Assembly (NCBI GenBank): GCA_018175035.1
Contig: GCA_018175035.1_4099.2
DNA length: 33,238 nucleotides
Reading direction: 5' to 3' (one strand)
DNA from: a phage
Every line of letters starts with the position of its first letter. The stretch's first letter is position 1. Of the stretch, positions 6,354 to 32,079 are shown piece by piece. Under the pieces are notes generated by a model, which was not told the origin of the DNA, did not search any database, and saw nothing but the letters and a program-made list of their open reading frames with translations. The position numbers and the translations under genes are program-made.

Positions 6354-6617
6354 ATGAATATTAAAGATAGATTACAATTACTATACACTATTGAACAGGC
6401 TGCTTTTGAACTTGTTAATAAAATCTCCGAAGAACTTCCCAAAGGAACTATAGTTCGTGTAATTGAGAGGGATTATGAATCTGGAGAAATTGAAGAACTA
6501 GTACTAACCGTGAATAAAGTAACATACTATGAATCTGAGTTGGCTATCCAATGTATATCGGAAGATGGTAAAATATACTATTATGACACTGGTGTAGATA
6601 TAGAGGTAATAAAATGA
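6354..6617 (+). CDS. Hypothetical small protein
   Basis: ATG 6354 directly after upstream TAA, GGTGGAAA upstream; track start 6309 would overlap upstream gene by 44 nt. Confidence 0.5.
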   Translation: MNIKDRLQLLYTIEQAAFELVNKISEELPKGTIVRVIERDYESGEIEELVLTVNKVTYYESELAIQCISEDGKIYYYDTGVDIEVIK

Positions 6618-7756: not shown

Positions 7757-7786
7757 TACTATCTAGCCTAAGCACAAGGAGAAGTG

Positions 7787-8041
7787 ATGGCTAAACCTAA
7801 GTATAAAAATGACGGTTCCCTTTCTCCGACTGAGTTCAGGAAAATACAAGAAGAAATCGATGAATTACAGCACAAACGCTCAATGAAAGGTGTGAAGATA
7901 AGTAAGAAACGAATCGAGAATACCTTCGGATGTAGTAGTACTGAATACAAGAAGAAAAGGAAACCAAAAGGTGTTAAGCCGAGAATACATGATGTAACTC
8001 GCTATACATCGAAACGTGAAAATAAATTTGATCCACTATAA
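7787..8041 (+). CDS. Small highly basic (Lys/Arg-rich) protein, possible nucleic-acid binding
   Basis: ATG 5 nt after AAGGAG; track start 7784 is GTG. Confidence 0.55.
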   Translation: MAKPKYKNDGSLSPTEFRKIQEEIDELQHKRSMKGVKISKKRIENTFGCSSTEYKKKRKPKGVKPRIHDVTRYTSKRENKFDPL

Positions 8042-8050
8042 GGAGTTCAT

Positions 8051-8281
8051 ATGAAAGTTGAAGTTCAGCATAGTATTGTTCAGGATATGTCAGTAGTTAA
8101 ATTTCTTTCTCTGAAAGATTACTTCAGATGTATCAAGTTCCTAGAAGAATCTCAATTACAGTGGACCCCATTAAAGTACAGTTCATCCAATGATACTGCT
8201 AGTATTCGTTGTGATGAATCTGTACTTGTGAAAATCTCCAAGCGATTTGGAGTAGGAAAAGTTAATGAGCACAGTAAGTGA
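8051..8281 (+). CDS. Hypothetical small protein
   Basis: ATG with GGAG SD. Confidence 0.55.
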   Translation: MKVEVQHSIVQDMSVVKFLSLKDYFRCIKFLEESQLQWTPLKYSSSNDTASIRCDESVLVKISKRFGVGKVNEHSK

Positions 8282-8519
8282 CCTAAAATACTACAACAAA
8301 ACTGCGGATACGTTTATTACTCATTTATATGAAGAATTTAGTCGTATCCGTAAGGAATATACAGGTAAATGTATTTTATATAGTTCTTATCATAGTGGTG
8401 GAATTGAAAGTGCTTACATTACTAAAGTGAAGTTTTCTGATGACTATCAATTACTCTTTGAATTAGATGATTGTTTCGTTATTGAAGCTTGTTTGATAGT
8501 GGATGTTCTAGATAATTGA
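8265..8519 (+). CDS. Hypothetical small protein (paralog family B-like, YTGKCILY)
   Basis: ATG ORF overlapping upstream gene by 17 nt. Confidence 0.5.
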   Translation: MSTVSDLKYYNKTADTFITHLYEEFSRIRKEYTGKCILYSSYHSGGIESAYITKVKFSDDYQLLFELDDCFVIEACLIVDVLDN

Positions 8520-8525
8520 GGACAT

Positions 8526-8840
8526 ATGAATAAAGAACTTGTATTTGAGAGGATCGAAAAGTTAAAGTACATTGAAAAGGAACTAATAGAATCTGTCGAA
8601 TCAATGGTCGAAGATTACGTTTTCGATTTTAAGAAAACATTGATTGGATGTAAAGTTAAATGCTGGGATCATACAATCAGAGAATGGTTCAGTACTATAA
8701 TTCTTGATGTTAAAGTATCGCGTACTGCTATTGGTAATTTAGTAAATGGTGAATGCTTTGTATACACTGAATACAATAACGGAACAAGAAACCTTTCAAG
8801 AGGATGGCACAAACTCGAAGATGTAGAATTCATTGAGTAA
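8526..8840 (+). CDS. Hypothetical small protein (paralog family B-like, LIGCKVKCWD)
   Basis: ATG with GAGGA SD. Confidence 0.55.
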   Translation: MNKELVFERIEKLKYIEKELIESVESMVEDYVFDFKKTLIGCKVKCWDHTIREWFSTIILDVKVSRTAIGNLVNGECFVYTEYNNGTRNLSRGWHKLEDVEFIE

Positions 8841-8852
8841 CAAGGAGTAATA

Positions 8853-9785
8853 ATGCCAACTATTACACTAACAGTTGGATTACCTGGGTGTGGTAAAACC
8901 ACATGGGCAGTTCAAGAAATTAAAAATGCCAAATCCAAGACTATCAACATCAACCGTGATGATATTCGTGAATCTATGGCTGGGTCACATGATGCTTACA
9001 AATTCAACGATGCTAATGAGCAGTACGTAACTAATTTACAGTTCAGTGCAGCAAATTCAGCAGCAGAGAATGGTTGGAACATCATCATATCCGATACAAA
9101 CCTTAAACAACATTTCCGTAATCTCTGGAAAGTATGGGCTAAAGATAATGGTTATGATTACAAAGAAAAGAACTTCTATGATGATTTTGTACCTAATGAA
9201 GACCGTGGTGCAGATGTTCATGAATTCTTTAAGATTAAAGAGTTCGTAAAACTTTGTAAGAAATATAACCTCCAGCGTGAGCGTTCAGTACAAGATGATA
9301 TCATTGACACAATGGCAGATACGTACTATTATAGTAAGGCATTACACATTGGTTACTATGGTAATTCACGCGAAGCTGCTATCATCGTTGATATCGATGG
9401 AACTCTTGCTCATAAATGGGGTCGTAATCCTTACGATGAAAGTACTGTTCTTCAGGATACACCTGATGAAGAAGTTATTTTGTCTATTATCGCTGAAGCA
9501 GTTTTTCATAAACGCAAGATTATCGTCATGAGTGGGCGTACTGAAGGGTGTCGTGCTGATACCGAACAGTGGCTTAAGAATTGGGGTGTTCCTTACGATG
9601 CATTGTTTATGCGAGATATCGATGATAAACGTCCTGATGATGTTGTAAAATTCGACCTGTACATGAAAAATGTGGTTGATCATTACGATGTTAAAAAGGT
9701 ATATGATGACCGCGATCAAGTTGTATTCATGTGGCGTAAGCTACTTGGGTTGAAAGTTTTCCAAGTGGCTGAAGGAAATTTCTAA
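8853..9785 (+). CDS. pseT: Polynucleotide 5'-kinase / 3'-phosphatase (T4 PseT/Pnk family)
   Basis: AAGGAG SD; N-terminal P-loop GLPGCGKTT with NINRDD; C-terminal HAD phosphatase motif DIDGTL; C-terminus ...DDRDQVVFMWRKLLGLKVFQVAEGNF resembles T4 Pnk as I recall it. Confidence 0.9.
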   Translation: MPTITLTVGLPGCGKTTWAVQEIKNAKSKTININRDDIRESMAGSHDAYKFNDANEQYVTNLQFSAANSAAENGWNIIISDTNLKQHFRNLWKVWAKDNGYDYKEKNFYDDFVPNEDRGADVHEFFKIKEFVKLCKKYNLQRERSVQDDIIDTMADTYYYSKALHIGYYGNSREAAIIVDIDGTLAHKWGRNPYDESTVLQDTPDEEVILSIIAEAVFHKRKIIVMSGRTEGCRADTEQWLKNWGVPYDALFMRDIDDKRPDDVVKFDLYMKNVVDHYDVKKVYDDRDQVVFMWRKLLGLKVFQVAEGNF

Positions 9786-11473: not shown

Positions 11474-11800
11474 GTGAATGGTTCGTTTTTAACAATATTA
11501 GAAAAGACAACCGAGATGCTTTCTAGCTCGTTAATGCAGATTTTCAGTACTAATAATTTATACAATACCCAGGTGTTAGATTCAATTAATAATAACTATG
11601 TGGTAAGTATATCTGATGAAATATGTCCATTTAACGCGTATTCAATTTATAGTGTAGAAGAGTTTCGTATATCCGAGATTCGATGTGGTTTTGGTGCTTG
11701 GTTAGTTCTAAATGAACGTTCAGGGTTGTCTTTATACATCGAAGAAGTTAGTAAATTTATATACAAAGGAGTAGAATATGTTAACCCCAATTATTCTTAG
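11474..11800 (+). CDS. Hypothetical protein
   Basis: GTG start 7 nt after GGGAGA SD; 108 aa. Confidence 0.5.
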   Translation: MNGSFLTILEKTTEMLSSSLMQIFSTNNLYNTQVLDSINNNYVVSISDEICPFNAYSIYSVEEFRISEIRCGFGAWLVLNERSGLSLYIEEVSKFIYKGVEYVNPNYS

Positions 11801-12407
11801 CAGTGCATATGTAATCGGTATTATTATTTCTGGTATGCTTGCATATAACTATAACCGAAGTGTTCTAGGTTATGTAGTACTTGGTACAGTACTAAGTCCA
11901 GTGATTGCCATTGGTCTTCTTGTTATGCTAGGTGAGAAAAATACAAGCTTCTTTATTACTAAAGAACTTGATAAAATCACTCCAGCACCAGAAACAGTTA
12001 TTCCAGAAGTTAAAGAAGAAGTTAAAGAAGTTGAAGTTCAAATGCAAGTTAAAGTGTATAATACACTTGAAGAAACTGATCCTAAAGTTGTAGTGAATGT
12101 AGTTCCAGTCGTTGAAGATGTGAAACCAAAAGCTCCTAAAGTACAGAAAAATACTAAAACTGCAAAGAAAGCTCGTTACACTAAAGGTAAGAACAAAGGT
12201 AAATCTAAGGATGAACCACAACTAGGTGTTCATGACCATACTGCACAAATTGCAACGGCAGCGACCGCAGCAGCAATCGTAACATCACCAATCTACAACA
12301 ATGATGATTACAGTGATTATAGCCGTCACAGCAGTTCTTCCTCTGATTCTTGTTCCTATGATAGCTCTAGTTCTGATTCAAGTTCATCGTCTGGAAGTTG
12401 TGATTAA
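11778..12407 (+). CDS. Membrane-anchored protein with Lys/Glu/Val-rich linker and Ser-rich C-terminal tail
   Basis: Two hydrophobic N-terminal segments; C-terminus SSSSSDSCSYDSSSSDSSSSSGSCD. Confidence 0.6.
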   Translation: MLTPIILSSAYVIGIIISGMLAYNYNRSVLGYVVLGTVLSPVIAIGLLVMLGEKNTSFFITKELDKITPAPETVIPEVKEEVKEVEVQMQVKVYNTLEETDPKVVVNVVPVVEDVKPKAPKVQKNTKTAKKARYTKGKNKGKSKDEPQLGVHDHTAQIATAATAAAIVTSPIYNNDDYSDYSRHSSSSSDSCSYDSSSSDSSSSSGSCD

Positions 12408-12736
12408 TGTCAATGAAACCACTAATTCAACATAATATTTTTTATAGGTCATTATTCAAAATTCAAGATGATTTTTATCAGACGTTGAGTAATGATCTTA
12501 TAGGTAAAACTGTACGATATTCGGAACAATACATCAAACGTATGACAAGTCAGTATATTGACCCTGAATACGAATACGACATTGAACACATTAATCCCAA
12601 TACTAGAATGAAAATCATTGAGATATTTAAGAATGGGAGAACTATAGGTGCTGAAATTGAGTACTTGAATTGTGATTGTTACATAGATACAGAGTTGAGT
12701 TTGGATTATCTTGTTTTAGTGGATGATGAGGAATAA
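12407..12736 (+). CDS. Hypothetical small protein, paralog family B-like (LIGKTVRY)
   Basis: TAATG overlap. Confidence 0.55.
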   Translation: MSMKPLIQHNIFYRSLFKIQDDFYQTLSNDLIGKTVRYSEQYIKRMTSQYIDPEYEYDIEHINPNTRMKIIEIFKNGRTIGAEIEYLNCDCYIDTELSLDYLVLVDDEE

Positions 12737-12738
12737 TT

Positions 12739-12954
12739 ATGATAACATTTTTTGCAATATATGGATTTGTAGCATTTGTTACATTTATAACCAACTTTCT
12801 AGTACTTAATTGGGGTTGTTTTAAAGATGAAATCATGATTATCATGAATCTCCAAACAGCAGCACTGATGGCTATTATTTGGCCTGTAACATTAGTATAT
12901 ATTTTTATTTCACTTACCCAAGATATTATTAACAAATATAAGAGAAAGAAATAA
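12739..12954 (+). CDS. Small membrane protein (two predicted TM helices)
   Basis: ATG ORF; hydrophobic, C-terminus KYKRKK. Confidence 0.5.
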   Translation: MITFFAIYGFVAFVTFITNFLVLNWGCFKDEIMIIMNLQTAALMAIIWPVTLVYIFISLTQDIINKYKRKK

Positions 12955-16083: not shown

Positions 16084-17502
16084 ATGAGCATTTTAGCAAT
16101 TCTTGAAAGCATTAAAAATACTAGCAGTACACTAGGCAAAAAAGCTATTCTTGAACAAAATAAAGATAATGTAACTTTACAAAAAGTACTGAAATATACA
16201 CTAGACCCTTCTATCGTTAGTGGCTATAAGAAGCTCCCTGCCGCTGATGACGTATATCAACATATGACGTTAGATGAAGCAATTGATAAGCTAGAATGCA
16301 TTTACAAGCGTGATGTGACAGGAAATGCGGGGCGTGATTTCATTGCTTCAGTACTGGGTTCAGTATCAGAAGATGATCAAGAAGTTCTCCGTAAAATGCT
16401 TACTAAAAACCTTGATTGTGGTATTCAAGAAAAGAACTGCAATGATGTATTTGGTAAAGGCTTTATTAAAGACGAACCATATATGCGTTGTTCTTTGATT
16501 GACAAAAAGACTGCAAAGAACATCAACTTCAAAGATTATGGTTACGCTATATCAGAAGTGAAAATGGATGGTCAGTACTTGAACCACGTTGTCATTAATG
16601 GTTCATTAACTTCTACATCCCGTAATGGTAAACTATACGACTTCCTGGGTTGTCGTGATGGTGAGATGGCAGGTCTTGCTCACATCATCCAAAGTAAAGA
16701 TGAACGTTTTAGTAGTGGTGTAGTCTTTATGGGTGAAGGTGTAGTACTGGACAATGATGGAGAAACCATTCTCCCACGCACTACTGGCAATGGTATAATT
16801 CAGAAAGCTGGAAAAGATAGTATCAGTCAGAATGAAGCAATGCGTACTGTATTTGTTCTATGGGATGTTGTTCCATATGATGCATTTTGTGAAGGTGTAT
16901 GGGATGTAAAACGTAAAGAACGTCGCGAGATCTTAGTAGATGCAATTAACGAACTCAGTAGTGATTTTGTTCGTATGGTTGGATTCCGTAAAGTTCTAAA
17001 CATCAAAGAAGCATTTGAGTACAATAGTGAACTAATGAGCGTAGGTGAAGAGGGTTCAGTACTGAAATGTGAAGATGGTATCTGGAAATCTCACACTTCT
17101 CCTAAGCAATTGAAAATGAAACTCAAAATGCAACTGGACTTGCGTATTGTTGGTTTCAATGAAGGTGAAGGTAAGCGTAAAGGTAGCCTTGGTTCTTTAC
17201 AACTGGAAAGTGCTTGTGGTACATTGAAAGTTAATGTAGGTACTGGAATTAAAGAGAAAGACGCAGAATGGACGTTTAAAACCATTTGGGAAAGAATGCA
17301 AGAACTCATCGGTCAAGTAGTAACAGTAGAGTGCAATGATATTGTATTCGATAAGCGTACTGGTGAGCCATCACTGTTCTTACCAGTGTTTATTGAATTT
17401 AGATTTGACAAAAACACTTGTGATGATTATACTCGTATCTTAGAAATTCGTGAGAGTGCAGTTGAAGTGTTCTCAAACAGTATTATTGACGCATTAGGTT
17501 AA
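16084..17502 (+). CDS. ATP-dependent DNA ligase (T4 gp30-like)
   Basis: N-terminus ...STLGKKAILEQNKDN resembles the T4 ligase N-terminus as I recall it; adenylation motif I KxDG (VKMDGQ); ~470 aa; AAAGGA SD. Confidence 0.9.
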   Translation: MSILAILESIKNTSSTLGKKAILEQNKDNVTLQKVLKYTLDPSIVSGYKKLPAADDVYQHMTLDEAIDKLECIYKRDVTGNAGRDFIASVLGSVSEDDQEVLRKMLTKNLDCGIQEKNCNDVFGKGFIKDEPYMRCSLIDKKTAKNINFKDYGYAISEVKMDGQYLNHVVINGSLTSTSRNGKLYDFLGCRDGEMAGLAHIIQSKDERFSSGVVFMGEGVVLDNDGETILPRTTGNGIIQKAGKDSISQNEAMRTVFVLWDVVPYDAFCEGVWDVKRKERREILVDAINELSSDFVRMVGFRKVLNIKEAFEYNSELMSVGEEGSVLKCEDGIWKSHTSPKQLKMKLKMQLDLRIVGFNEGEGKRKGSLGSLQLESACGTLKVNVGTGIKEKDAEWTFKTIWERMQELIGQVVTVECNDIVFDKRTGEPSLFLPVFIEFRFDKNTCDDYTRILEIRESAVEVFSNSIIDALG

Positions 17503-21834: not shown

Positions 21835-22270
21835 GGAAAGTAAATGTATTTCACAAAAAGTTGGTTGTGTTATTGTTAAAAATAACCGAGTATTGAGTAC
21901 TGGATACAATGGTACTCCATCAAAACAACCAAATTGCTGTGATGTGAATCAACACTTAGTCAATGATGGGCGTTTTCAAGACTGGGTTAGTGATGAAGCA
22001 AAGCATGAACATCATGAGTGGAGTAATATTCATGAAATCCATGCTGAAATGAACGCTTTACTCTATAGTTCTCCTACTGAACGTCAAGGTGCTACTCTTT
22101 ACACAACACTACAACCATGTTATACTTGTTCTAAGTTGATCGCAGGTAGTGGGATTTCACGTGTAATTTATCACAAAAGTTATCCACGAACACCACCTGA
22201 AGCGATTAAAGTACTGGAAGATGCTGGGATTATTGTTAACTGCATTTATGACAAGGGTATGAATCAATGA
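21791..22270 (+). CDS. cd: Deoxycytidylate (dCMP) deaminase
   Basis: Zinc-deaminase motifs HAEMNAL and PCYTCSKLI; N-terminus ...ESKC.S.KVGCVIVKNNRVLSTGYNG resembles T4 Cd as I recall it; ATG after GGAG SD (track start 21779 is TTG). Confidence 0.85.
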   Translation: MKHTTWLKIAEVVAEESKCISQKVGCVIVKNNRVLSTGYNGTPSKQPNCCDVNQHLVNDGRFQDWVSDEAKHEHHEWSNIHEIHAEMNALLYSSPTERQGATLYTTLQPCYTCSKLIAGSGISRVIYHKSYPRTPPEAIKVLEDAGIIVNCIYDKGMNQ

Positions 22271-22521
22271 CATTTATGATTGTTGGATTTCTATCAATAT
22301 TAGTATTATTTTTTATAACAGTAATGTTTGTTATTGATGATAATGACATTTCTCAACGAAACTATGAAGTGCGTTTTTCTGCACAAAATAATAAGTACTA
22401 TATTGTAAACTGTATACACCGTAGTGAGAAAAGGGTAACAAGTAGATTTGGATTTACCATTTATTATAAAGACCGAGTAGAAGCTGACATGATTTGTCAG
22501 AAGCTTAATACTGTAGAATAA
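22267..22521 (+). CDS. Small membrane-anchored protein
   Basis: ATGA overlap with cd; hydrophobic N-terminus. Confidence 0.5.
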   Translation: MTFMIVGFLSILVLFFITVMFVIDDNDISQRNYEVRFSAQNNKYYIVNCIHRSEKRVTSRFGFTIYYKDRVEADMICQKLNTVE

Positions 22522-22550
22522 AAAAAAGGAGCCACAAGGCTCCTTTTTTG
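22520..22550. terminator. Bidirectional Rho-independent terminator between convergent genes
   Basis: A-run, stem AGGAGCC / GGCTCCT, loop ACAA, T-run; symmetric so functional on either strand. Confidence 0.65.
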
Positions 22551-22928
22551 TTAACCAGGGATGTTACAATAATACAAATCCCAAGGGTGATATTTCATTT
22601 CTCCAGTACTCAATTTAATTTTATGAAACTGGAATGATTCGGCAAATGCACTATCATCAATCTTAATACAAAAAGTATTTTTTGCTAAAGTTGGTGCAAT
22701 CTCTAGTGCAGTTTTAGATGCATCTAATCTGATTTTATCTTTATCAAAACTTGTTATAGTTACAAAACGATAAACATTAAAATCAGTGTCGATAAGATCG
22801 TAAACACAACTAGAACGTTGATTAAAGATGTTCAAGTTATATTTCAATTCACCGTTTATATTAGCGGCGGTTACACAAAAGCCGCCGATATTGAATGGTA
22901 ATTTACCTTGTGCTGCTATAGCTTTCAT
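22551..22928 (-). CDS. Hypothetical protein (125 aa); the only convincing minus-strand gene
   Basis: ATG preceded on the minus strand by AGAGGA at 8 nt; stop abuts the bidirectional terminator; competing + strand ORFs here lack SD. Confidence 0.55.
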   Translation of the reverse strand: MKAIAAQGKLPFNIGGFCVTAANINGELKYNLNIFNQRSSCVYDLIDTDFNVYRFVTITSFDKDKIRLDASKTALEIAPTLAKNTFCIKIDDSAFAESFQFHKIKLSTGEMKYHPWDLYYCNIPG

Positions 22929-23080
22929 ATTTTATTTCCTCTTATTAATAAACAACTACTTTTACAGATTGTTGTACCTTTTATATTTACACCGTCAACT
23001 AAATATCCACCTAAAGTGAATGGAAATTGGTCTTGTCCTGCGATTGGTTTTCCCATTAAGGGCACTCCTTATAAAAAAGC

Positions 23081-23110
23081 TTTACATTTGGTATGTGTTT
23101 GTGATAGAAT
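23081..23110 (+). promoter_or_regulatory. Candidate sigma70 promoter TTTACA-N18-TGaTAGAAT
   Basis: -35 TTTACA 23081-23086; extended -10 TGaTAGAAT 23102-23110. Confidence 0.4.
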
Positions 23111-23175
23111 CTTCACAGTGATTGTACTAAGGGGATTATCAGATGAGGGAAATTTGAGTTAAGTACAGAAAAAGT

Positions 23176-23204
23176 TTGACTTAAGTGTTTAAGTACTATA
23201 TTAT
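23176..23204 (+). promoter_or_regulatory. Candidate sigma70 promoter TTGACT-N17-TATTAT
   Basis: -35 TTGACT 23176-23181; -10 TATTAT 23199-23204; about 35 nt upstream of the 23238 gene. Confidence 0.45.
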
Positions 23205-23237
23205 TTATATCTTCCTAACCAAAATTAAGGATTTGTT

Positions 23238-23846
23238 ATGAAAAGACTATGGCTTGAGGTAGTACAAGCAGTAATGCTTCTGATGTTGATAAATTTTCCA
23301 GCCAGTGCTGGTATTGAAAGTAAAAATGTGATAAAGTACAATCCTGAAACACGTAATGTATATTTCATCTCAGATATTACGGATGGGTCACTAAAGCGTA
23401 TGATGGAGTTGTATGATAAAGAACACTATGATACCATTACCATCACATCGCCAGGTGGTGATTTTGATGCTGGGATTAAAATGGCAAACTTCGTTAGAGA
23501 CAATGGTATAAATTTAATTGTTTCTAGGTATTGCAACTCAGCATGTACTGTGGTATTCTTCAGTGTAGCTTTTGAAAAGCGATACATGATAAATCGCTCA
23601 GTACTGGGTCTTCATAACATTTCGATTAAAAGTAATGTTACTGATGGTGATAATTCATTTGTGTCTGTAAGACAGCTATCAACTTTTACCGAAGAAATGG
23701 CAACAAAGGTAGGTTTCCTTTTTTCACTATATGCAGCAAATGGAATCCCACCAGAAGTTCTATTTAGAGTTAGTCGTTCTCGTGGTGAAGATGTTGTAAT
23801 ATTAACAAAACCAGAACTGGTTTTTTACGGTTCAGTCAAACAATAA
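23238..23846 (+). CDS. Secreted (signal-peptide) ClpP/S49-like serine peptidase-fold protein
   Basis: N-terminal hydrophobic signal (LLMLINFPASAG); ClpP-like SPGGDFDAG, then CNSAC and GLHN in ClpP Ser/His positions; AAGGA SD. Confidence 0.55.
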   Translation: MKRLWLEVVQAVMLLMLINFPASAGIESKNVIKYNPETRNVYFISDITDGSLKRMMELYDKEHYDTITITSPGGDFDAGIKMANFVRDNGINLIVSRYCNSACTVVFFSVAFEKRYMINRSVLGLHNISIKSNVTDGDNSFVSVRQLSTFTEEMATKVGFLFSLYAANGIPPEVLFRVSRSRGEDVVILTKPELVFYGSVKQ

Positions 23847-23916
23847 AAATAATTAAAATAACAGGATGATTATGATGTACTTCCTTTGTTATTAATTATA
23901 TTGAGATTATATAACT

Positions 23917-24177
23917 ATGACAAACATCCAAAACTTGACATCTATTATTTTTTATGCTACTGTAGTAATGTATGCTACAGTTATTTTTCTAACAGTTTTC
24001 ATTTACAAAGATTATCGTAATGGCTTTATTGATCCAACTACAATGAAGTTCAATTCAAAATTCGAAGCAATAATTTATTATGTACTATCAACTTCATACT
24101 TGGTGTGCCTAATGTTGTTAGGAGCACTAATTTATATCTTATACACAACATTATTTGCAATTGGAGCTATTTTATGA
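23917..24177 (+). CDS. Small integral membrane protein (two TM helices)
   Basis: ATG ORF; hydrophobic segments. Confidence 0.5.
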   Translation: MTNIQNLTSIIFYATVVMYATVIFLTVFIYKDYRNGFIDPTTMKFNSKFEAIIYYVLSTSYLVCLMLLGALIYILYTTLFAIGAIL

Positions 24178-24767
24178 CCTGTATTATTGCACACACTGAC
24201 GGAGTAAGTTCTTTTATTGCTGGGGATAAGTTAGGAAGCAATGGATTTACAAAAACTGTTCAAACTGAGCCAAAGGTATTCGAGAAAGAATTTATCAAGT
24301 TACATGATGATGGACTAACTAGAACTAAAGAAGTAATGGCATTGGGTTATACTACATCATTTCGTATGGGTCAGTTGTTAAATTATAACCTTAATTTACC
24401 TGAACAAGATGCTAGTCAAACATTTTCACAATATTTGGTTCTTAAAGTTATTCCAATCATTCGTCAAATGTTTAAAGAAGAATGGGGTGCACGAGATGCA
24501 TCACAAGATGTAGGTGGTGGACAATTTATCATTCTCCACAATCATACAATCTATGAAGTTCAAGAAGACTTTTCAGTACTACAACCTAAAACAAGAATTA
24601 CCGCAGTAGGTAGTGGGACATATCATGCAATTGCAGCAATGCAAGCATATATTGAAGTTGAGAACGAATCTAAAAAACCACTACACGAACGTATCAAATC
24701 AATTTTTAAAATTGTTAGTGATAATGTAACAAGCGTAAGCGAAGAGTTTGATGTTTTAAAATATTAA
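24174..24767 (+). CDS. HslV/proteasome beta-subunit-like N-terminal-nucleophile hydrolase
   Basis: ATG 24174 (ATGA overlap, GGAG SD); N-terminus MTCIIAHTDG...IAGD parallels HslV MTTIVSV...IAGD with Thr at position 2; C-terminal AVGSGTYHAIAA parallels HslV AIGSGG.YA.AAA. Confidence 0.7.
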   Translation: MTCIIAHTDGVSSFIAGDKLGSNGFTKTVQTEPKVFEKEFIKLHDDGLTRTKEVMALGYTTSFRMGQLLNYNLNLPEQDASQTFSQYLVLKVIPIIRQMFKEEWGARDASQDVGGGQFIILHNHTIYEVQEDFSVLQPKTRITAVGSGTYHAIAAMQAYIEVENESKKPLHERIKSIFKIVSDNVTSVSEEFDVLKY

Positions 24768-24794
24768 AAGTACTAATATTATAAGAGAGAATAG

Positions 24795-24989
24795 ATGATG
24801 GCATACACAATTTATGAATGGGTTTTGAGTTTTTTTATAGTTTTTTCTATTGTTGTAATTTATAACAATGCTAAATGCTTATATAGAGACTTGAAATCCA
24901 ATGGTTATCACAAAGATAATAATTTTATGTATGCCTATCATATTGGAATCATTCTGTTATTATCAATATATTTAATTGTTTTTTTATAA
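24795..24989 (+). CDS. Small membrane protein
   Basis: ATG ORF; two hydrophobic segments. Confidence 0.4.
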   Translation: MMAYTIYEWVLSFFIVFSIVVIYNNAKCLYRDLKSNGYHKDNNFMYAYHIGIILLLSIYLIVFL

Positions 24990-24998
24990 GGATTGAAT

Positions 24999-25751
24999 AT
25001 GATATCAGAAAAATTTATAAGCAATGAAGGTAAAAAGCGATTACTGATTATATCAGGTGCAGGACTTTCTGTTGAAAGTGGTATGGAACCTTTTCGATTT
25101 GATGATGGTTTGTGGGATACATTTAAAATTAATGATGTATGTAACATTGCTAGTTTAACTACGAAATATCACGTTGTTCATTCCTTCTATAATACATTAC
25201 GTGTAAAATTGGGACAATGCGAACCCAATGCAATGCATTATTTTATAAAATCGTTAGAAGATCAATATGGTGATTGCTTCCTTCATATGACTTCTAACAT
25301 GGACGATCTTTATACTCGTATTGGTGGTCATGAGCTTAAACTTCATGGAAACTTGTGCGAAGTTATTGAAAATTATAGTATCAATTCCGATGATTATAAT
25401 GTTATTAACTGCGGATACGAACCATACATACCAAAACATGATGTTTTTGCTAAACCAAATGTAGTAATGATTGGAGAATATCATCGTTATGTTGATGGTA
25501 TTCGCTTACCAATTTACGAAGAACGAAATAATGTGTTGAAATCTCTTAATGAAAATGATACAGTTATTGTAATTGGTAGTAGCGATACAGTACTGGTATG
25601 GTCGAGATTAGCAGCAGCATTACCATGTTATAGTGTTAATGTTAACATTCGTAAAAATGATAATGATTTTTTGTTTAATGAAAAAGTTATCAAGCCAGCA
25701 ACCAAAGCAATACCGCATCTAGAGACTATAATTAAGGAACGTATGAAATGA
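24999..25751 (+). CDS. Sir2 (sirtuin) family protein, NAD-dependent deacylase / ADP-ribosyltransferase fold
   Basis: Sir2 motifs GAGLSVESGMEPFR (GAGxS...SGxPxFR), TSNMDDL (T/QNxDxL), LHGN, VVMIGE, VIVIGSS; no obvious 4-Cys zinc ribbon; ATG after AAGGA (track start 24993 is TTG). Confidence 0.75.
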   Translation: MISEKFISNEGKKRLLIISGAGLSVESGMEPFRFDDGLWDTFKINDVCNIASLTTKYHVVHSFYNTLRVKLGQCEPNAMHYFIKSLEDQYGDCFLHMTSNMDDLYTRIGGHELKLHGNLCEVIENYSINSDDYNVINCGYEPYIPKHDVFAKPNVVMIGEYHRYVDGIRLPIYEERNNVLKSLNENDTVIVIGSSDTVLVWSRLAAALPCYSVNVNIRKNDNDFLFNEKVIKPATKAIPHLETIIKERMK

Positions 25752-26299
25752 GTGTTAAAGAAGTTCCCTTTGGTGAATATGGCACACGTGCAAATTTTGT
25801 ATTTTGTTATTTCTTTGCAAGAAAATGCAACCCTTACAAAAACTATGAGTTGAATGATATACCAGAAGTAAATTTAGTATTACTGCAATTACGATGGGAT
25901 GGTCTTCTTGGTGGATGTGGTGGAACCGTAGAAAGTACTGATATCTCACTAGAAGATGCGTTGCGTCGTGAAGTTCAAGAAGAAATGGATTACAATATTT
26001 TTGTTTCCCATCTTCGACCACTCAAAACTTTTGAAATTTACCCAGGTGCAAACAGTCACAGTTTTAGCTATGAAGTAACCTATGACGAGTTGAAACACAT
26101 TAGAGATGGATACACTAATGCTAAACATGCAAGTGCAGAAGTTGCTGGTGTAAATTTATGTCATATTTCTCGTTATTCTAAGGGACAAAATCGAGAAGCG
26201 GGATATAATAATCTTATGACACAGAACTTCATCGGTACAGCAAAACAAGAATTGGAGTATCTGGTTCAAAAAGAAAACTTACTAATTAGTTATCTATAG
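25748..26299 (+). CDS. Putative Nudix-fold hydrolase (divergent Nudix box)
   Basis: ATGA overlap with Sir2 gene; GGCGGTVE...LRREVQEEMDY resembles Nudix box Gx5Ex7REUxEExGU with a 4-residue insertion and D in place of the last G. Confidence 0.45.
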   Translation: MSVKEVPFGEYGTRANFVFCYFFARKCNPYKNYELNDIPEVNLVLLQLRWDGLLGGCGGTVESTDISLEDALRREVQEEMDYNIFVSHLRPLKTFEIYPGANSHSFSYEVTYDELKHIRDGYTNAKHASAEVAGVNLCHISRYSKGQNREAGYNNLMTQNFIGTAKQELEYLVQKENLLISYL

Positions 26300-26308
26300 G
26301 AGTTTAAC

Positions 26309-26629
26309 ATGTCTTACTCAATGTTTTTGGATGATATTCGTGATGCAAATCTATATTATCCAAACCAAGATATGGTGGTATGTCGTGACTTTAAAAGTGC
26401 ATGTGAATATGTTATTGAAAATGGAATTCCAGCATTTGTATCATTCGACCATGACTTGGGTGATGTGAGCGAAGACGAAAAGACTGGATATTCTTTTGCT
26501 AAGTTTCTTATTGATTATATGTTTGATAATAATATTAAAGAACCGTTTGAGTACTTTGTTCACAGTAGTAATCCTGTTGGTAAAATTAATATTGAAACAT
26601 ACTTAAACAATGGATTTAACTCATTATGA
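26309..26629 (+). CDS. Receiver-like domain protein resembling the cyclic-phosphate-processing receiver (CPR) family (tentative)
   Basis: Pattern FLDDIR...SFDHDLG...TGY...HSSNPVG matches my recollection of this family; AGGAG SD 8 nt upstream. Confidence 0.45.
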   Translation: MSYSMFLDDIRDANLYYPNQDMVVCRDFKSACEYVIENGIPAFVSFDHDLGDVSEDEKTGYSFAKFLIDYMFDNNIKEPFEYFVHSSNPVGKINIETYLNNGFNSL

Positions 26630-26928
26630 TTCAAACACACATCAAAAGTCTTATTTGTACTGTTCTGTTAGGTGCAGGAGTTCTTTGGTTCGGACAGTAT
26701 CACGAGAACACTAAGCGTACCAACATTCACTACAATACCGCAGAAGTTGTTAGTTTAGGACAATGTAGCGAGTCCAAATGTTCATTTATGTATAAAACCC
26801 AAAGTGGTGAAGTACGTAATGGACTATCAAGAGAACCAGTTTCAATTGGTCAACTTGTTTACCAGGAGTGCTGGGAAGAAAAGGTTCGAGGTTCACGTTG
26901 CTATGTTGAATACGAACCAAATATGTAA
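26626..26928 (+). CDS. Membrane-anchored / exported Cys-containing small protein
   Basis: ATGA overlap; N-terminal hydrophobic helix; four Cys. Confidence 0.5.
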   Translation: MIQTHIKSLICTVLLGAGVLWFGQYHENTKRTNIHYNTAEVVSLGQCSESKCSFMYKTQSGEVRNGLSREPVSIGQLVYQECWEEKVRGSRCYVEYEPNM

Positions 26929-26988: not shown

Positions 26989-28428
26989 ATGAAAAAATAT
27001 ACAATTGACACAAACGTACTACTATCTGACCCTAATGCATCTATTGCTTTTGATGGTGCTGCAATCATTCTACCATTTACAGTACTGGAAGAATTGGATT
27101 CAATTAAGAGTCGTAATGTAGATGTTTCACGCGATGCTCGTGTTGCTATTCGTAACATTGAAGCAATTATTGCAGATGCATCACATGATGAGATTAGTAG
27201 TACTGGTGTTAATATTGCTGATGTTCATACCAATATGAATCCTGATAGCAAATTGTTTGTTATTACAAACGAAGAAGCTGAAGCACTAATTCGTACTAAA
27301 GGTTCAGAAGAGAAAGTTCAAACCCTTCTCAAAAGCACAGTACCTGATGATAAAATCATTCTGGTAGCTTTAGCAACAGAATCAGTACTGGTAACTCGTG
27401 ATATCAACATGCGTATCAAAGCACTAAGTTATGGTGTCGAGGTACAAGATTATCGCCATGATATTGTTATTGGTGATAGTGATTTGATTCACATTGGTCA
27501 ACACCATTTGGAAATTAATTTTTGGGAAGTATATAGCAACTTATCCAATACTAATATTCAATCCGAACAAGTTGGTCGTCGTTTGTATCATTACATTTCT
27601 AAAAGCTTGATTGAACATTTGCTTCCACAAAATCTATGCATCGGTGATTATCTATATGATGATGCAGACGTATTATTTGTGTACGAAGGTCAATCAGCAA
27701 TTGAGGAAGATGATGGAACACTAACACCAGAAGATATTTTGGTATTCCAAGATATTGGACAATCAGTAGCTTTACGTGCTAAAGTATGGGATATTAAAGC
27801 AAAGAATATCCAACAAGCACTCGCCATCAACAGTATTCTCGATCCTGATGTACATCTAACAGTACTGCTAGGTTCTGCTGGTACTGGTAAAACACTAATT
27901 ACGATTGCTACTGCATTAGAATTAGTACTGGAAAAACGTAAATACGACCGAATCATCTTCTCTAAAACTCAAGACTCACAGTTTGAAGATATTGGTTTCT
28001 TGCCAGGTTCAGAAGCAGAAAAAGTGATTCCATTCTGTGGAGCCGCAATTGACGCGTTAGAGTTTCTTCATAAAGATGATGCTAACCCACAAGGTAGTAT
28101 TGAAGAGATTATGAAACGTAATGTTATTCAATTTAAAGCACTAAACTTTGTACGTGGACGTTCATTCACCAACACTATTCTAGTAGTTGATGAATTCCAA
28201 AACATTACACCTGCACAAGCCAAAACAATCTTGACACGAGCAGGATTAAACTGTAAAGTAGTAATTATGGGTAACTTGAGTCAGATTGACAGTAAGTTTA
28301 TTAGTCCTGTTAACAGTGGTTTGACATATGTAACTGAGAAGTTTAAAGATTGGGCAGGTTGTCGTGTCATCGAACTAGAAGGTGTTGTTCGTTCACCACT
28401 TGCAGAATTTGCTGAAGAAAATATGTAA
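26989..28428 (+). CDS. phoH: PIN-domain PhoH-like ATPase (PhoH2/YlaK-type)
   Basis: N-terminal PIN-like region (YTIDTNVLLSDP...LEELD); Walker A GSAGTGKT, Walker B VVDEFQN; 479 aa. Confidence 0.85.
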   Translation: MKKYTIDTNVLLSDPNASIAFDGAAIILPFTVLEELDSIKSRNVDVSRDARVAIRNIEAIIADASHDEISSTGVNIADVHTNMNPDSKLFVITNEEAEALIRTKGSEEKVQTLLKSTVPDDKIILVALATESVLVTRDINMRIKALSYGVEVQDYRHDIVIGDSDLIHIGQHHLEINFWEVYSNLSNTNIQSEQVGRRLYHYISKSLIEHLLPQNLCIGDYLYDDADVLFVYEGQSAIEEDDGTLTPEDILVFQDIGQSVALRAKVWDIKAKNIQQALAINSILDPDVHLTVLLGSAGTGKTLITIATALELVLEKRKYDRIIFSKTQDSQFEDIGFLPGSEAEKVIPFCGAAIDALEFLHKDDANPQGSIEEIMKRNVIQFKALNFVRGRSFTNTILVVDEFQNITPAQAKTILTRAGLNCKVVIMGNLSQIDSKFISPVNSGLTYVTEKFKDWAGCRVIELEGVVRSPLAEFAEENM

Positions 28429-28911: not shown

Positions 28912-29469
28912 ATGTTTTTTGACCAAACATTTACGTTGTATCACGATTCTGGTAAAGTTGAGATTATTGATAATCTGTTAGAGTACATTGCGGAACATGA
29001 CGGTATAGACCGTTTCCACAGTAAGATGAAATTCGATTTAGCTGAATTCAACAAAAAGAATCGTGAAACATTTTGGAAGAACCGTTTCTATTACGAAATG
29101 TTTCCAGAAAAGTTTGTGGGTTATTATCTTTGTACTGAAAAAGGATTACTTGTATCTCCTGATTTACTTATGGGTGAATACATGATACTCTATAATGAGT
29201 ACTGGGAACATAAACGTAAAGCTCGTGATACGGAATGGCGACATAAGCGTTCGTATATGTACAAACATAACCACTCCCGATACAAGCGTCCTAAGACACA
29301 ACAAGAGCGTCGTATGGCTTGTGCAGTACTGAAGGATGAGGGGGAACCTGATATACGTGGAAGACGTAAGATGCGTTCATTACCATCGTATTGGGACGAT
29401 ATCAGAACAAGACATAGTACTGGCTGGAAATACAGTACTAAACGTAAACATCAATACAAAGGGAGCTAA
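28912..29469 (+). CDS. Hypothetical protein with Arg/Lys-rich C-terminal half
   Basis: AAGGAG SD; 185 aa. Confidence 0.6.
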   Translation: MFFDQTFTLYHDSGKVEIIDNLLEYIAEHDGIDRFHSKMKFDLAEFNKKNRETFWKNRFYYEMFPEKFVGYYLCTEKGLLVSPDLLMGEYMILYNEYWEHKRKARDTEWRHKRSYMYKHNHSRYKRPKTQQERRMACAVLKDEGEPDIRGRRKMRSLPSYWDDIRTRHSTGWKYSTKRKHQYKGS

Positions 29470-29496
29470 TGCTCCCTAATTTTATAGGTGAACTTT

Positions 29497-29826
29497 ATGA
29501 ACAAAATTGACGTTACTGTAGTGATTGGTTATATTGAAATTGAACCGTGTGGCATTGATACCTTTATTGACACTCTTAATAAGTATCGTGCTGAATATAA
29601 CGGTCACATTAGTCTTTCACCAGACAGTGGTTACGGCGGTTTTCATGGATACAATGTAATTTGGACCAGAGAAGAAACTGACGAAGAATATAATACACGA
29701 ATTGAAGCTGAATCTAAAAGATGTGAAGAAATTGAACGTCAAGAAATGAAACACTTAATGAACAAGAAATCATTAAGTACCGAAGAGAAATCTAAACTGC
29801 TAAAATACATCAAGGATTACATGTAA
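29497..29826 (+). CDS. Hypothetical protein
   Basis: ATG 29497 (MNKIDV...), GGTG 6 nt upstream; track start 29488 is GTG; small hairpin GGGAGC-TAAT-GCTCCC at 29461-29476 precedes. Confidence 0.5.
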   Translation: MNKIDVTVVIGYIEIEPCGIDTFIDTLNKYRAEYNGHISLSPDSGYGGFHGYNVIWTREETDEEYNTRIEAESKRCEEIERQEMKHLMNKKSLSTEEKSKLLKYIKDYM

Positions 29827-30476
29827 TGAAAAATGTAACTCAAGAAAAGATTCTGTACCTTGCAAAGTACAATGGTGGTTTCAATATCATTAGCCGTGAG
29901 TACAGTGGTAATTTGGCTAAGTTGATTGACAGTTTGTTAGAATTTGATTTCATTAAATGGGAAACTAATGAACTTTGGTACGAATATGCTGGTCAGAAAT
30001 GGGAAAGTGATTATGATAATGCAATACATTCATACACTATCACCAAAGCAGGTGAAGTTCGATTAGCCATTATGCGTTGTGCATATACTTACAAAAATCA
30101 TAAAGGTGAAGAAAAACATATTCGCAGAAATGAAGAGCTATTACTTCTCATGGAAGCAGCAAAAGTTACAATGCATGATTTGTTCCACCACCCACGTTGG
30201 TATGAAAATCTAACAAAAGCAGAGTACAAAGCTTTACGTTACATTGATGAACAAAACAACACCCCAGTTGAAGTTGATGATGTTAGTGATGATGAACTAA
30301 GCCTCAAAAATGTATTTGAAAGTACCAGTACTGAAAGTATTACAGACATTTCTGTACAGATGGCACTAAAAGCAATGGAACTTTTCAAGACACAATATGA
30401 AGGACACAGTGCTGAAGAAGTAGAGCGTGAGTTTATTACTCGTGTACAAATTGCGTTACATAAAAATAAAAAGTAG
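29826..30476 (+). CDS. Hypothetical protein
   Basis: TAATG overlap; 216 aa. Confidence 0.6.
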   Translation: MKNVTQEKILYLAKYNGGFNIISREYSGNLAKLIDSLLEFDFIKWETNELWYEYAGQKWESDYDNAIHSYTITKAGEVRLAIMRCAYTYKNHKGEEKHIRRNEELLLLMEAAKVTMHDLFHHPRWYENLTKAEYKALRYIDEQNNTPVEVDDVSDDELSLKNVFESTSTESITDISVQMALKAMELFKTQYEGHSAEEVEREFITRVQIALHKNKK

Positions 30477-30482
30477 GTTCAT

Positions 30483-30662
30483 ATGAAAATTTTACTTGTA
30501 CTAATAGCAGTAGTTATGGTATTATCTTGTTCAGTTAGTAATGGTAAGTACATTTACATGTCTGCTTTCGAAGAAGCACCGACAAACTGTGTACAAACTC
30601 ATTCAGGTATTATGCTAATTAATGGAAGACCTTCAATTGAATACTTATGTATAGGGGATTAA
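30483..30662 (+). CDS. Small exported protein, possible lipoprotein (59 aa); not in ORF track
   Basis: MKILLVLIAVVMVLSC... hydrophobic signal with Cys at position 16 (imperfect lipobox VLSC). Confidence 0.4.
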   Translation: MKILLVLIAVVMVLSCSVSNGKYIYMSAFEEAPTNCVQTHSGIMLINGRPSIEYLCIGD

Positions 30663-30665
30663 AAT

Positions 30666-30896
30666 ATGAAATTATTGTGTATTGCTATTGTTTCTTCTAT
30701 TGTATTTCTAAGTGGGTGTGCTCCTAAATTTGATGAGATGGATGCTGAAATTATCCGACAAGGTTTAACAAAACTAAATCACGAAGGAACACTTTATGCA
30801 TGTCATACTATGCGTCATGGTCAAGATCTGAACTTAATGTGTAGAAAGATTGTGAATCGCAAACGTCTTAATACTGTTCCGAAGGATGCACAATGA
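30666..30896 (+). CDS. Predicted lipoprotein (76 aa)
   Basis: Signal peptide with canonical lipobox LSGC (MKLLCIAIVSSIVFLSGCAP...). Confidence 0.55.
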   Translation: MKLLCIAIVSSIVFLSGCAPKFDEMDAEIIRQGLTKLNHEGTLYACHTMRHGQDLNLMCRKIVNRKRLNTVPKDAQ

Positions 30897-31063
30897 AAGA
30901 AGTAATTGGCTACAAATGTAAAAACTGCGGGAAAGATAAAGGAAAACATTCTATTCAAGGTCTGGCCTGCCCAAATCCAGGACGTGGTAACTTCAGAGGT
31001 TTCAGTACTGAAAAGTCGTATGAACCTGATAATACGAAACCTGTCATGGGCTACAAACTATGA
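30893..31063 (+). CDS. Small zinc-ribbon-like protein (56 aa); not in ORF track
   Basis: ATGA overlap at both ends; MKEVIGYKCKNCGKDKGKHSIQGLACPNPG... Confidence 0.4.
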   Translation: MKEVIGYKCKNCGKDKGKHSIQGLACPNPGRGNFRGFSTEKSYEPDNTKPVMGYKL

Positions 31064-31419
31064 GTGATTATGTTGCATTCCTATACCGATTTGGTGTTGC
31101 ACAAGAAAAGCACATTATCCGTATGCCAGCATATGGTGAGAAAGGATGGTATAAGAGTATTATTAGTGTAGGTGCATTTCGTGACCGCGAAGCAGAATAC
31201 TTCCTTAAAAGTCTCAATAATGAACCTATTCGCTTCTCGCTCCAGTGTTTATCAGAATGGGAGGCAAGTAATAAAATCACAGCAGAATCAATGCAAGCTG
31301 TATGTGGCATTCAAAATTATGTCCATCCATATGACAATCTTCCTTGCACTGTGCATAATTCAGTGTTTGACTTTTACAAAGCAGTAGGGTATGATTATAA
31401 AAAGAAACGTTATGTTTAG
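31060..31419 (+). CDS. Hypothetical protein
   Basis: ATGA overlap; 119 aa. Confidence 0.55.
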   Translation: MSDYVAFLYRFGVAQEKHIIRMPAYGEKGWYKSIISVGAFRDREAEYFLKSLNNEPIRFSLQCLSEWEASNKITAESMQAVCGIQNYVHPYDNLPCTVHNSVFDFYKAVGYDYKKKRYV

Positions 31420-31423
31420 CATT

Positions 31424-31451
31424 AGTACTGCCACAGTGGGCGGTACTTTTT
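31424..31451 (+). terminator. Rho-independent terminator
   Basis: Stem AGTACTGCC / GGCGGTACT (9 bp, one G-U), 6-nt loop, then TTTTT. Confidence 0.6.
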
Positions 31452-31464
31452 AATTGGGGATAAT

Positions 31465-32079
31465 ATGACAACATCTGAAAAGTACTGGTGGATTTTGGGT
31501 CATCCTAAATTCATAAACAAAGATATGGTTCCAGCTAGGATTGATATAGAACCTCATGATGTGTGTCCAATGACAAATCGAATTGAAGATTTCAAAGCAT
31601 TGAATACAAAGACTCAATTTTGGGTAGAATTTCTTTCACCAATGTATATTGAGCAAGACGACGAATGGGTACAAGCACATGATTATCAATTGGATTGTGG
31701 TGGTGATACGTATGAAGAGGCCATTGATGAATTATACAAAAATGTGCTAAGAACATATGGTGATTACACCCAACAAGAAGCGGACGATGAATTTAATAAG
31801 ATCCATGTAGCTATTTCGACATCATCAATTTATAATCCCACTAAAACAGTTTGGGAGGAACGACACAGTTGGTGTTCATGTGTAATCGATGAAGAAACCA
31901 AAGAAAAAATCATCGATGACATAAAAAATTTAAAAAATACAATCCAAGCCTTGCGTGCATTCATAAAGTCTTGTACAATAGAAGAACAGCAAGAGGCAAA
32001 GATACATTTGGAGAGTGAAGAATGTAAACTTTGGGTTCTAGAAAAATCACTTGAAAAGGGTATAGACTTAGACTTATGA
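31465..32079 (+). CDS. Hypothetical protein (acidic, 204 aa)
   Basis: ATG with GGGGA SD. Confidence 0.6.
   Translation: MTTSEKYWWILGHPKFINKDMVPARIDIEPHDVCPMTNRIEDFKALNTKTQFWVEFLSPMYIEQDDEWVQAHDYQLDCGGDTYEEAIDELYKNVLRTYGDYTQQEADDEFNKIHVAISTSSIYNPTKTVWEERHSWCSCVIDEETKEKIIDDIKNLKNTIQALRAFIKSCTIEEQQEAKIHLESEECKLWVLEKSLEKGIDLDL

Follow-up and report, generated by a model that had tools for sequence, protein, structure and literature searches.

The window, that is, the whole 33,238-nucleotide stretch of phage DNA that was analysed, contains two adjacent small genes, ORF1 and ORF2, whose products are predicted to be exported lipoproteins. The 59-aa and 76-aa ORFs stand in tandem in the ORF listing, followed by a 56-aa ORF (ORF3), exactly where the earlier note had described them. 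The features of the locus are as follows.

29460–29477, plus strand: terminator-like hairpin upstream of the six-gene block 29488–31419 (consensus scan only)
30483–30662, plus strand: ORF1, probable lipoprotein precursor of 59 aa; homologue of 121Q gp485, phrog_22308 (function not assigned)
30483–30530, plus strand: predicted ORF1 signal peptide, composed of MK and a 12-residue hydrophobic core and ending at the lipobox
30519–30530, plus strand: ORF1 lipobox V13-L14-S15-C16, with Ser as the +2 residue; fits the PROSITE-type rule
30588–30650, plus strand: invariant pair Cys36 (30588–30590) and Cys56 (30648–30650) of ORF1; putative intramolecular disulfide
30666–30896, plus strand: ORF2, very probable lipoprotein precursor of 76 aa; homologue of 121Q gp486, matching no PHROG
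30666–30719, plus strand: predicted ORF2 signal peptide, ending at the lipobox; its core is hypervariable among relatives, with the G-C kept
30708–30719, plus strand: ORF2 lipobox L15-S16-G17-C18, with Ala as the +2 residue; fits the PROSITE-type and G+LPP patterns
30801–30842, plus strand: invariant pair Cys46 (30801–30803) and Cys59 (30840–30842) of ORF2; putative disulfide
30893–31063, plus strand: ORF3, putative cytoplasmic CCHC zinc-knuckle protein of 56 aa, phrog_10623; start codon shared with the stop of ORF2 in an ATGA overlap
30917–30970, plus strand: ORF3 motif C9-x2-C12-x6-H19-x6-C26, three Cys and one His
31424–31447, plus strand: terminator-like hairpin downstream of the six-gene block (consensus scan only)

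The window is nearest to the Asteriusvirus jumbo coliphages (121Q, PBECO4, SHEFM2K, slurp01, and others), with 78–89% nucleotide identity, and its source is an Asteriusvirus-like (121Q/PBECO4) jumbo coliphage. None of the database matches is an identical record of the region. A prophage or plasmid origin was rejected, as no match was found in 5,426 complete E. coli genomes and none in PLSDB. ORF1, ORF2, and ORF3 are the counterparts of 121Q gp485, gp486, and gp487, which are all labelled hypothetical protein. The amino acid identity to 121Q is 81% for ORF1 and 93% for ORF2, and gene order and spacing are the same. The window copy of the locus is a mosaic, in which the nearest relatives of ORF216, ORF1, and ORF2 are found in UB/slurp01, JNE01/Turkey5, and 121Q, respectively.

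ORF1 and ORF2 are set in a non-structural region rich in genes of nucleic-acid and nucleotide metabolism and RNA/DNA repair. Their neighbours are ORF216, the knuckle gene ORF3, a 119-aa ORF, a 204-aa ORF, dCMP deaminase, and PhoH. Gene products recognised in the rest of the window are T4-type RNA ligase 1 (Rnl1), PNKP, an ATP-dependent DNA ligase, two metallophosphoesterases, and ClpP, as well as Sir2, NUDIX, PIN-PhoH, and dCMP deaminase. A scan of the larger ORFs, several of which have no Pfam match, recognised no tail-fibre, receptor-binding, structural, or lysis gene in the window. Several further small membrane or exported ORFs are present in the window besides ORF1 and ORF2.

The small genes around ORF1 and ORF2 are tightly packed. 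Only 3 nt separate ORF1 from ORF2, and ORF2/ORF3 and ORF3/ORF119 share ATGA overlaps. Shine-Dalgarno-like sequences (AAGTAGGT, AGGGGA, and AAGGA, respectively) lie 4–7 nt upstream of the starts of ORF1, ORF2, and ORF3. This packing is consistent with co-transcription and translational coupling. A promoter scan gave matches no more frequent than in shuffled sequence.

ORF1 is missing from the ORF track, as the earlier note pointed out, probably because its 59 residues fall one short of the default 60-aa minimum. It appears when the minimum is lowered to 50 aa and is annotated in 121Q and SHEFM2K. The dN/dS ratio of the mature domain is about 0.11 for ORF1 and about 0.07 for ORF2, and the ratio for ORF3 is 0.02–0.12. 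ORF1 and ORF2 are real coding genes under purifying selection.

The products of the two genes carry the marks of lipoprotein precursors. A PROSITE PS51257-type rule was run over the 278 six-frame ORFs in the window that are 30 aa or longer. It demands a positively charged residue at the N-terminus, a hydrophobic core free of charges, and a lipobox of the form [LIVMFWSTAG]2-[LIVMFYSTAGCQ]-[AGS]-C with the cysteine at position 15–35. The two neighbours, ORF1 (Cys16) and ORF2 (Cys18), are the only ORFs of the 278 that fit, so that a signal peptidase II site is predicted in each. When both the PROSITE-type and the stricter G+LPP pattern are required, shuffled windows yield 0.115 strict matches per window.

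ORF2 begins with MKLLCIAIVSSIVFLSGC18APKF, and its product is very probably a lipoprotein. In an alignment of 18 sequences, the hydrophobic core varies freely, G17-C18 is near-invariant, the mature part is conserved, and C46 and C59 are invariant. The G-C of the lipobox is retained throughout the alignment except in one N-terminally truncated sequence. This pattern is that expected for a cleaved, lipid-modified signal. The mature part is basic and comprises 59 residues (6.8 kDa, pI about 9.0). Its cysteine pair sits in the motif Y-x-C-H...L-x-L-M-C-R-K, and the AF2 model displays a helix and three strands with a pLDDT of 67.3.

ORF1 begins with MKILLVLIAVVMVLSC16SVSNG and also probably encodes a lipoprotein, with somewhat less confidence than ORF2. 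The mature part of 44 residues (4.8 kDa) is acidic, with a pI of about 5.0, and is modelled by AF2 as a small four-stranded β-sheet with a pLDDT of 83.5. Because of a Leu at −2, ORF1 falls outside the G+LPP pattern, and the V-x-S preceding the cysteine would also suit signal peptidase I. ORF1 might thus be unlipidated, either cut after V-L-S by signal peptidase I or kept as an uncleaved membrane anchor, or neither protein might be exported. This alternative is quite unlikely and concerns mainly ORF1; ORF2 fits both patterns and keeps its G-C. The hydrophobic region ends in a cysteine in all ORF1 homologues, including those with as little as 31% identity. The most distant ones, CPT_Munch_155 of Salmonella phage Munch and RaK2_00511 of Klebsiella phage RaK2, possess a canonical LLSGC lipobox, and the Eneladusvirus members carry the UniRef label 'Lipoprotein'.

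Asp is absent from the +2 position throughout both families. Enterobacterial lipoproteins without Asp at this position are transported by Lol to the outer membrane, and ORF1 and ORF2 should therefore be sorted there. We infer the lipidation, outer-membrane sorting, and disulfides of both proteins from established lipoprotein biology. The locus would then encode two unrelated small disulfide-bonded outer-membrane lipoproteins with mature masses of 4.8 and 6.8 kDa. The earlier suggestion of two small exported lipoproteins is thus well supported by the conserved lipoboxes and cysteine pairs and by purifying selection.

The same suggestion described the 56-aa ORF that follows as a zinc ribbon. Four putative metal ligands are indeed conserved in ORF3, as C9, C12, H19, and C26 are invariant over six homologues or paralogues. 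They are three Cys and one His rather than four Cys, and ORF3 is a putative CCHC zinc knuckle. The Pfam models for zinc knuckles and zinc ribbons give ORF3 scores well under threshold. ORF3 is a neighbour of ORF1 and ORF2, and no functional tie to them is claimed.

The ORF2 family comprises 38 phage records and 17 metagenomic clusters. An exhaustive profile search of 1.84 billion representatives added three clusters only, all of them 63–75-aa lipoproteins with the same Cys pair; the other matches of that search are repeat artefacts. EJP2_141 and Hallingskeid CDS0542 belong to the family, and Serratia phage BF contributes a remote member, BF_0127 (hhalign, 87.6%), in which the lipobox and both cysteines align. 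BF_0127 further links to CBB_133 and GAP32_132. The lipobox is kept in the ORF2-like proteins of EJP2, Hallingskeid, BF, CBB, and GAP32, and Cys46 and Cys59 are invariant superfamily-wide, these five phages included. Among Asteriusviruses, only some carry the ORF1 family, which is also found in Eneladusvirus (BF_0128, the Erwinia SNUABM phages, and Yersinia fHe-Yen9-04) and in Munch and RaK2.

Both families are confined to RaK2-like jumbo phages of Enterobacterales. The phages with the two families infect Escherichia, Salmonella, Klebsiella, Erwinia, Serratia, Yersinia, Pectobacterium, and Cronobacter. All copies lie in one shared stretch upstream of a conserved 204-aa gene and dCMP deaminase, and both families are syntenic and conserved over at least five jumbo-phage genera with differing hosts. 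In Asteriusvirus, ORF1 precedes ORF2; in Eneladusvirus, the ORF2-like gene precedes the ORF1-like gene, and the two are adjacent in both. ORF1 and ORF2 are not obligate partners, because each is found without the other.

By sequence and fold comparison, ORF1 and ORF2 are orphan families with no characterised relatives. Pfam, NCBIfam, and PADLOC gave no informative match for either protein. Searches of PDB sequences and PDB folds returned no relevant match and no likeness to Llp or Rtp45. The Asteriusvirus literature on lipoproteins, spanins, or exclusion contains nothing on the two genes. A paralogous relationship between ORF1 and ORF2 was rejected, as BLASTP finds no match between them and hhalign aligns the signal peptides only.

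Comparison of related phages points to a changeable locus, in which the segment from ORF216 to the ORF2 lipobox is a replaceable cassette. In the window, as in 121Q, the cassette contains ORF1; in PBECO4, slurp01, phAPEC6, and fEgEco12 it contains a WGR-domain gene and a 126-aa gene, and in WPEC5 ORF1 together with the 126-aa gene. The signal-peptide-coding part of ORF2 moves with the upstream cassette. Between 121Q-type and PBECO4-type ORF2, dS is 0.056 in the mature part and 1.79 in the signal peptide, whereas fEgEco12 and slurp01 display the opposite pattern, with 0.19 in the signal peptide and 1.58 in the mature part. These opposed contrasts place a recombination breakpoint at the ORF2 lipobox.

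ORF1 is missing from many Asteriusviruses. Nested deletions, different in each of four Salmonella SD phages, have taken out ORF1 together with the whole or almost the whole of the ORF2 signal peptide and have left the mature frame intact. Since these phages lack the signal peptide, export of ORF2 seems dispensable, at least on that host. An assembly error in the SD-phage records is possible.

A role as virion component is not supported. The ORF2 homologue of phAPEC6, gp334, is not among the 62 virion proteins identified by mass spectrometry, in which a 7-kDa protein is easily missed. With the same reservation about small proteins, the published proteome table lists none of gp332–337.

Superinfection exclusion or receptor masking, the function proposed in the earlier note, is plausible by analogy. 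Of the paradigms named there, T5 Llp is a like-for-like comparison, and T4 Imm and Sp are not. T4 Imm is an inner-membrane protein. T4 Sp (Spackle) is a small, helical, disulfide-containing periplasmic protein, which is cleaved by signal peptidase I and acts in exclusion. Neither of the two T4 proteins is known to be a lipoprotein.

The llp, cor, and rtp45 genes adjoin a receptor-binding protein gene, which is their positional hallmark. Their products are outer-membrane lipoproteins of about 6–7 kDa (about 6 kDa for Rtp45) on the periplasmic face, and Llp (Cys11-Cys58) and Cor each contain one intramolecular disulfide. They jam FhuA or LptDE and so prevent binding of the receptor-binding protein (PMC9586334, PMC12685063). 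In these papers, the structurally characterised lipoproteins of this kind come from small siphophages.

As the leading guess, ORF1 and ORF2 may act in superinfection exclusion of the type known for T5 Llp, T1/phi80 Cor, and Rtp45; we put the probability of this reading at about 0.3. Both proteins would be exported, lipidated, and anchored in the inner leaflet of the outer membrane. The 44-residue acidic domain of ORF1 and the 59-residue basic domain of ORF2 would face the periplasm, each locked by one disulfide made by DsbA. From the periplasmic side, they would bind an outer-membrane component that is conserved and on which this phage and its relatives depend for irreversible adsorption or DNA entry. 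The infected cell, and the debris left after lysis, would thereby be closed to further particles. The class analogy, the non-structural context, and the dispensability are the basis of this tentative reading, and its target and phenotype are drawn by analogy only.

The distribution of the two families bears on what such a target could be. Conservation over at least six host genera is easier to reconcile with a conserved target than with a strain-specific receptor. The RaK2-like phages presumably carry many different tail fibres, which makes a single receptor-masking protein a less obvious strategy. A conserved target could be a secondary receptor or entry portal, or the clade's own T4-like tail lysozyme.

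A periplasmic or envelope role unrelated to exclusion, exerted on a host target conserved across Enterobacterales, is about as likely as exclusion. Lysis timing, stabilisation of the envelope during the long jumbo-phage cycle, blocking of a host protease or defence, and altered vesiculation are tentative examples. Synteny and conservation over the jumbo-phage genera again suggest a conserved target rather than a variable receptor, and the families are orphans with no functional homologue. The other small membrane or exported ORFs of the window point the same way, and because of them envelope remodelling may be a broader theme. This role is, however, a residual category with nothing specific and positive for it, and the SD-phage loss and patchy occurrence of ORF1 indicate that it would not be essential.

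Less likely is a Spackle-type function, in which ORF1, ORF2, or both would bind the tail-associated lysozyme of an incoming phage in the periplasm and block its activity. The infected cell would be spared lysis from without, and entry of secondary DNA would be blocked. A clade-conserved, phage-encoded target would explain the conservation of the lipoproteins whatever the host genus, and ORF1 and ORF2 are, by prediction, small, periplasmic, and disulfide-bonded, as is Spackle. However, Spackle is helical and not known to be lipidated, and no match was found among PDB sequences and folds, which should include Spackle. T4-like tail-associated glycoside hydrolases have been reported in RaK2-like phages (PMC7760394), in line with such a target.

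A spanin function was rejected as very improbable: small outer-membrane lipoproteins have the topology of Rz1 and PseT.2, and spanins are ill-defined in this clade (Eneladusvirus has been reported to possess an o-spanin-like gene but no i-spanin), but ORF1 and ORF2 lack the partner, the domain composition, and the lysis context of an o-spanin or unimolecular spanin. No i-spanin-type gene with an N-terminal TMD and a long periplasmic domain lies upstream, overlapping, or adjacent, and the preceding ORF216 is soluble. ORF1 has only 59 residues, and the mature domains contain only two Pro each and are predicted by AF2 to be folded. Neither protein can be a u-spanin, because the sole hydrophobic segment is N-terminal and no C-terminal TMD is present. 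The scan of the larger ORFs recognised no endolysin or holin nearby, and the SD phages remain viable although their ORF2 is not exported. An o-spanin annotation in Munch is mentioned in the Eneladusvirus paper, possibly for a gene other than the ORF1 homologue CPT_Munch_155, which is labelled just as a hypothetical protein. The spanin-like gene of Eneladusvirus is said to be near an ACP gene, but there is no ACP gene in a stretch of about 5 kb around BF_0127/0128, which are likewise annotated as hypothetical.

Homologues of ORF1 and ORF2 are already known as deposited hypothetical proteins in dozens of genomes. What the present result offers is a soundly based improvement in annotation, with 'small outer-membrane lipoprotein' in place of 'hypothetical protein', and not a demonstrated new mechanism. 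If the exclusion reading is true, two clade-conserved, unrelated lipoproteins carry the Llp/Cor/Rtp45 theme over to giant myoviruses. The binding partners of ORF1 and ORF2 could be a handle on the receptor or entry route of RaK2-like phages; should exclusion be clade-wide, the partner would reveal how 350-kb myoviruses cross the envelope. Exclusion factors influence cocktail design, which makes the proteins relevant to phage therapy.

Among known systems, the o-spanins λ Rz1 and T4 PseT.2 and the u-spanin T1 gp11 resemble ORF1 and ORF2 in being small, phage-encoded outer-membrane lipoproteins, as the latter are predicted to be. Unlike spanins, however, the mature domains of ORF1 and ORF2 are predicted to fold, possess an internal Cys pair, and contain no Pro-rich unstructured periplasmic domain. 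T4 Spackle shares with them the origin from a region of small non-structural genes in a large lytic myovirus, as well as small size and export. In contrast to Spackle, which is helical and cleaved by signal peptidase I, ORF1 and ORF2 have a lipobox and match it in neither sequence nor fold.

The closest parallels are T5 Llp, T1/phi80/N15 Cor, and Rtp45. Like them, ORF1 and ORF2 are phage-encoded and very small, with a lipobox and no Asp at +2. They also resemble the class in being non-structural and dispensable and, by prediction, in containing one intramolecular disulfide each. The differences lie in ancestry, position, and carrier. ORF1 and ORF2 have no detectable sequence or fold relation to Llp, Cor, or Rtp45, and their genes do not adjoin a receptor-binding protein gene. 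They are carried by a 350-kb myovirus rather than a siphovirus, and they are two unrelated lipoproteins in tandem that are conserved over many host genera. Because both homology and adjacency to a receptor-binding gene fail, the two proteins cannot be filed as members of the Llp class. The two families could instead represent, as a tentative proposal, a new clade-wide, envelope-acting exclusion class of RaK2-like phages that is unrelated to Llp/Cor and directed at an Enterobacterales-conserved target, which would be either the phages' terminal receptor or entry portal in the outer membrane or their own tail lysozyme.

Locus comparison delimits a swappable cassette between ORF216, the gene directly preceding ORF1, and the lipobox of ORF2. 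The features involved are as follows; coordinates of comparison loci from related phages (L handles) are internal to each locus.

Window 30477-30719: cassette, from ORF216 to the ORF2 lipobox; counterparts at L004:1415-3040, L003:2175-3340 and L014:881-1500
Window 29826-30476: ORF216; compared with L009:1638-2489, L018:1017-1865, L004:1428-1532 and L003:2192-2296
Window 30893-31063 (+): ORF3; compared with L018:1926-2435 and L008:2690-3240
L005:2020-2070, L011:1190-1230, L012:1195-1240 and L013:1190-1225: deletion sites in Salmonella SD phages

The cassette has three alternative contents: ORF1, a WGR-domain gene with a 126-aa gene, or ORF1 with the 126-aa gene. The part of ORF2 encoding the signal peptide is exchanged along with the upstream cassette, which places the recombination breakpoint at the ORF2 lipobox codons.

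Four Salmonella SD phages carry four distinct nested deletions, which take out ORF1. The deletions also remove the ORF2 signal peptide wholly or nearly so and leave the mature ORF2 frame unbroken. They could reflect a true loss linked to the host, or could be an artefact of assembly.

ORF216 itself has no Pfam match and is a shorter version of its 282-283-aa relatives in phages Munch and Hallingskeid. Judged by eye, the C terminus of these longer proteins looks MazG-like (EELGE...GEAVDL...). Beside the WGR cassette, slurp01 and fEgEco12 retain remnants of that C terminus as 34-aa ORFs.

On the other side of ORF2, ORF3 shares the knuckle motif C-x2-C-x6-H-x6-C with CPT_Munch_154 of Salmonella phage Munch, in which this CCHC knuckle is fused to the C terminus of a vWA-like domain. 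The knuckle is a gene of its own in EJP2, where it adjoins the vWA-like gene, and in Hallingskeid, where the two genes overlap by 4 nt. In the window ORF3 is solitary, with no vWA-like partner close by. Farther downstream, a 204-aa gene (window 31465-32079) directly precedes the dCMP deaminase gene. It has no Pfam match and is broadly conserved, being present in RaK2-like jumbo phages; its N-terminal half also occurs in Vibrio and Shewanella phages of ~130 kb and in Xanthomonas XbC2.

Further small membrane or exported ORFs lie at window 22267-24989, 26626-26928 and 11778-12954. None has a lipobox.

23238-23846: 202-aa ORF with an SPase-I-like signal (...NFPASA|G)
22267-22521 and 26626-26928: ORFs with a single N-terminal TMD
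23917-24177, 24795-24989, 11778-12407 and 12739-12954: ORFs with 2-3 TMDs

The window also encodes an RNA-repair-type set, in which PNKP and a T4 Rnl1-like ligase are accompanied by an ATP DNA ligase. Sir2 and NUDIX genes next to each other and a PIN-PhoH fusion are present as well; together these genes occupy 6614-9785, 16084-17502, 24993-26299 and 26989-28428. The Rnl1 and PNKP pair may be akin to the T4 counter-measure against tRNA-cleaving defence.
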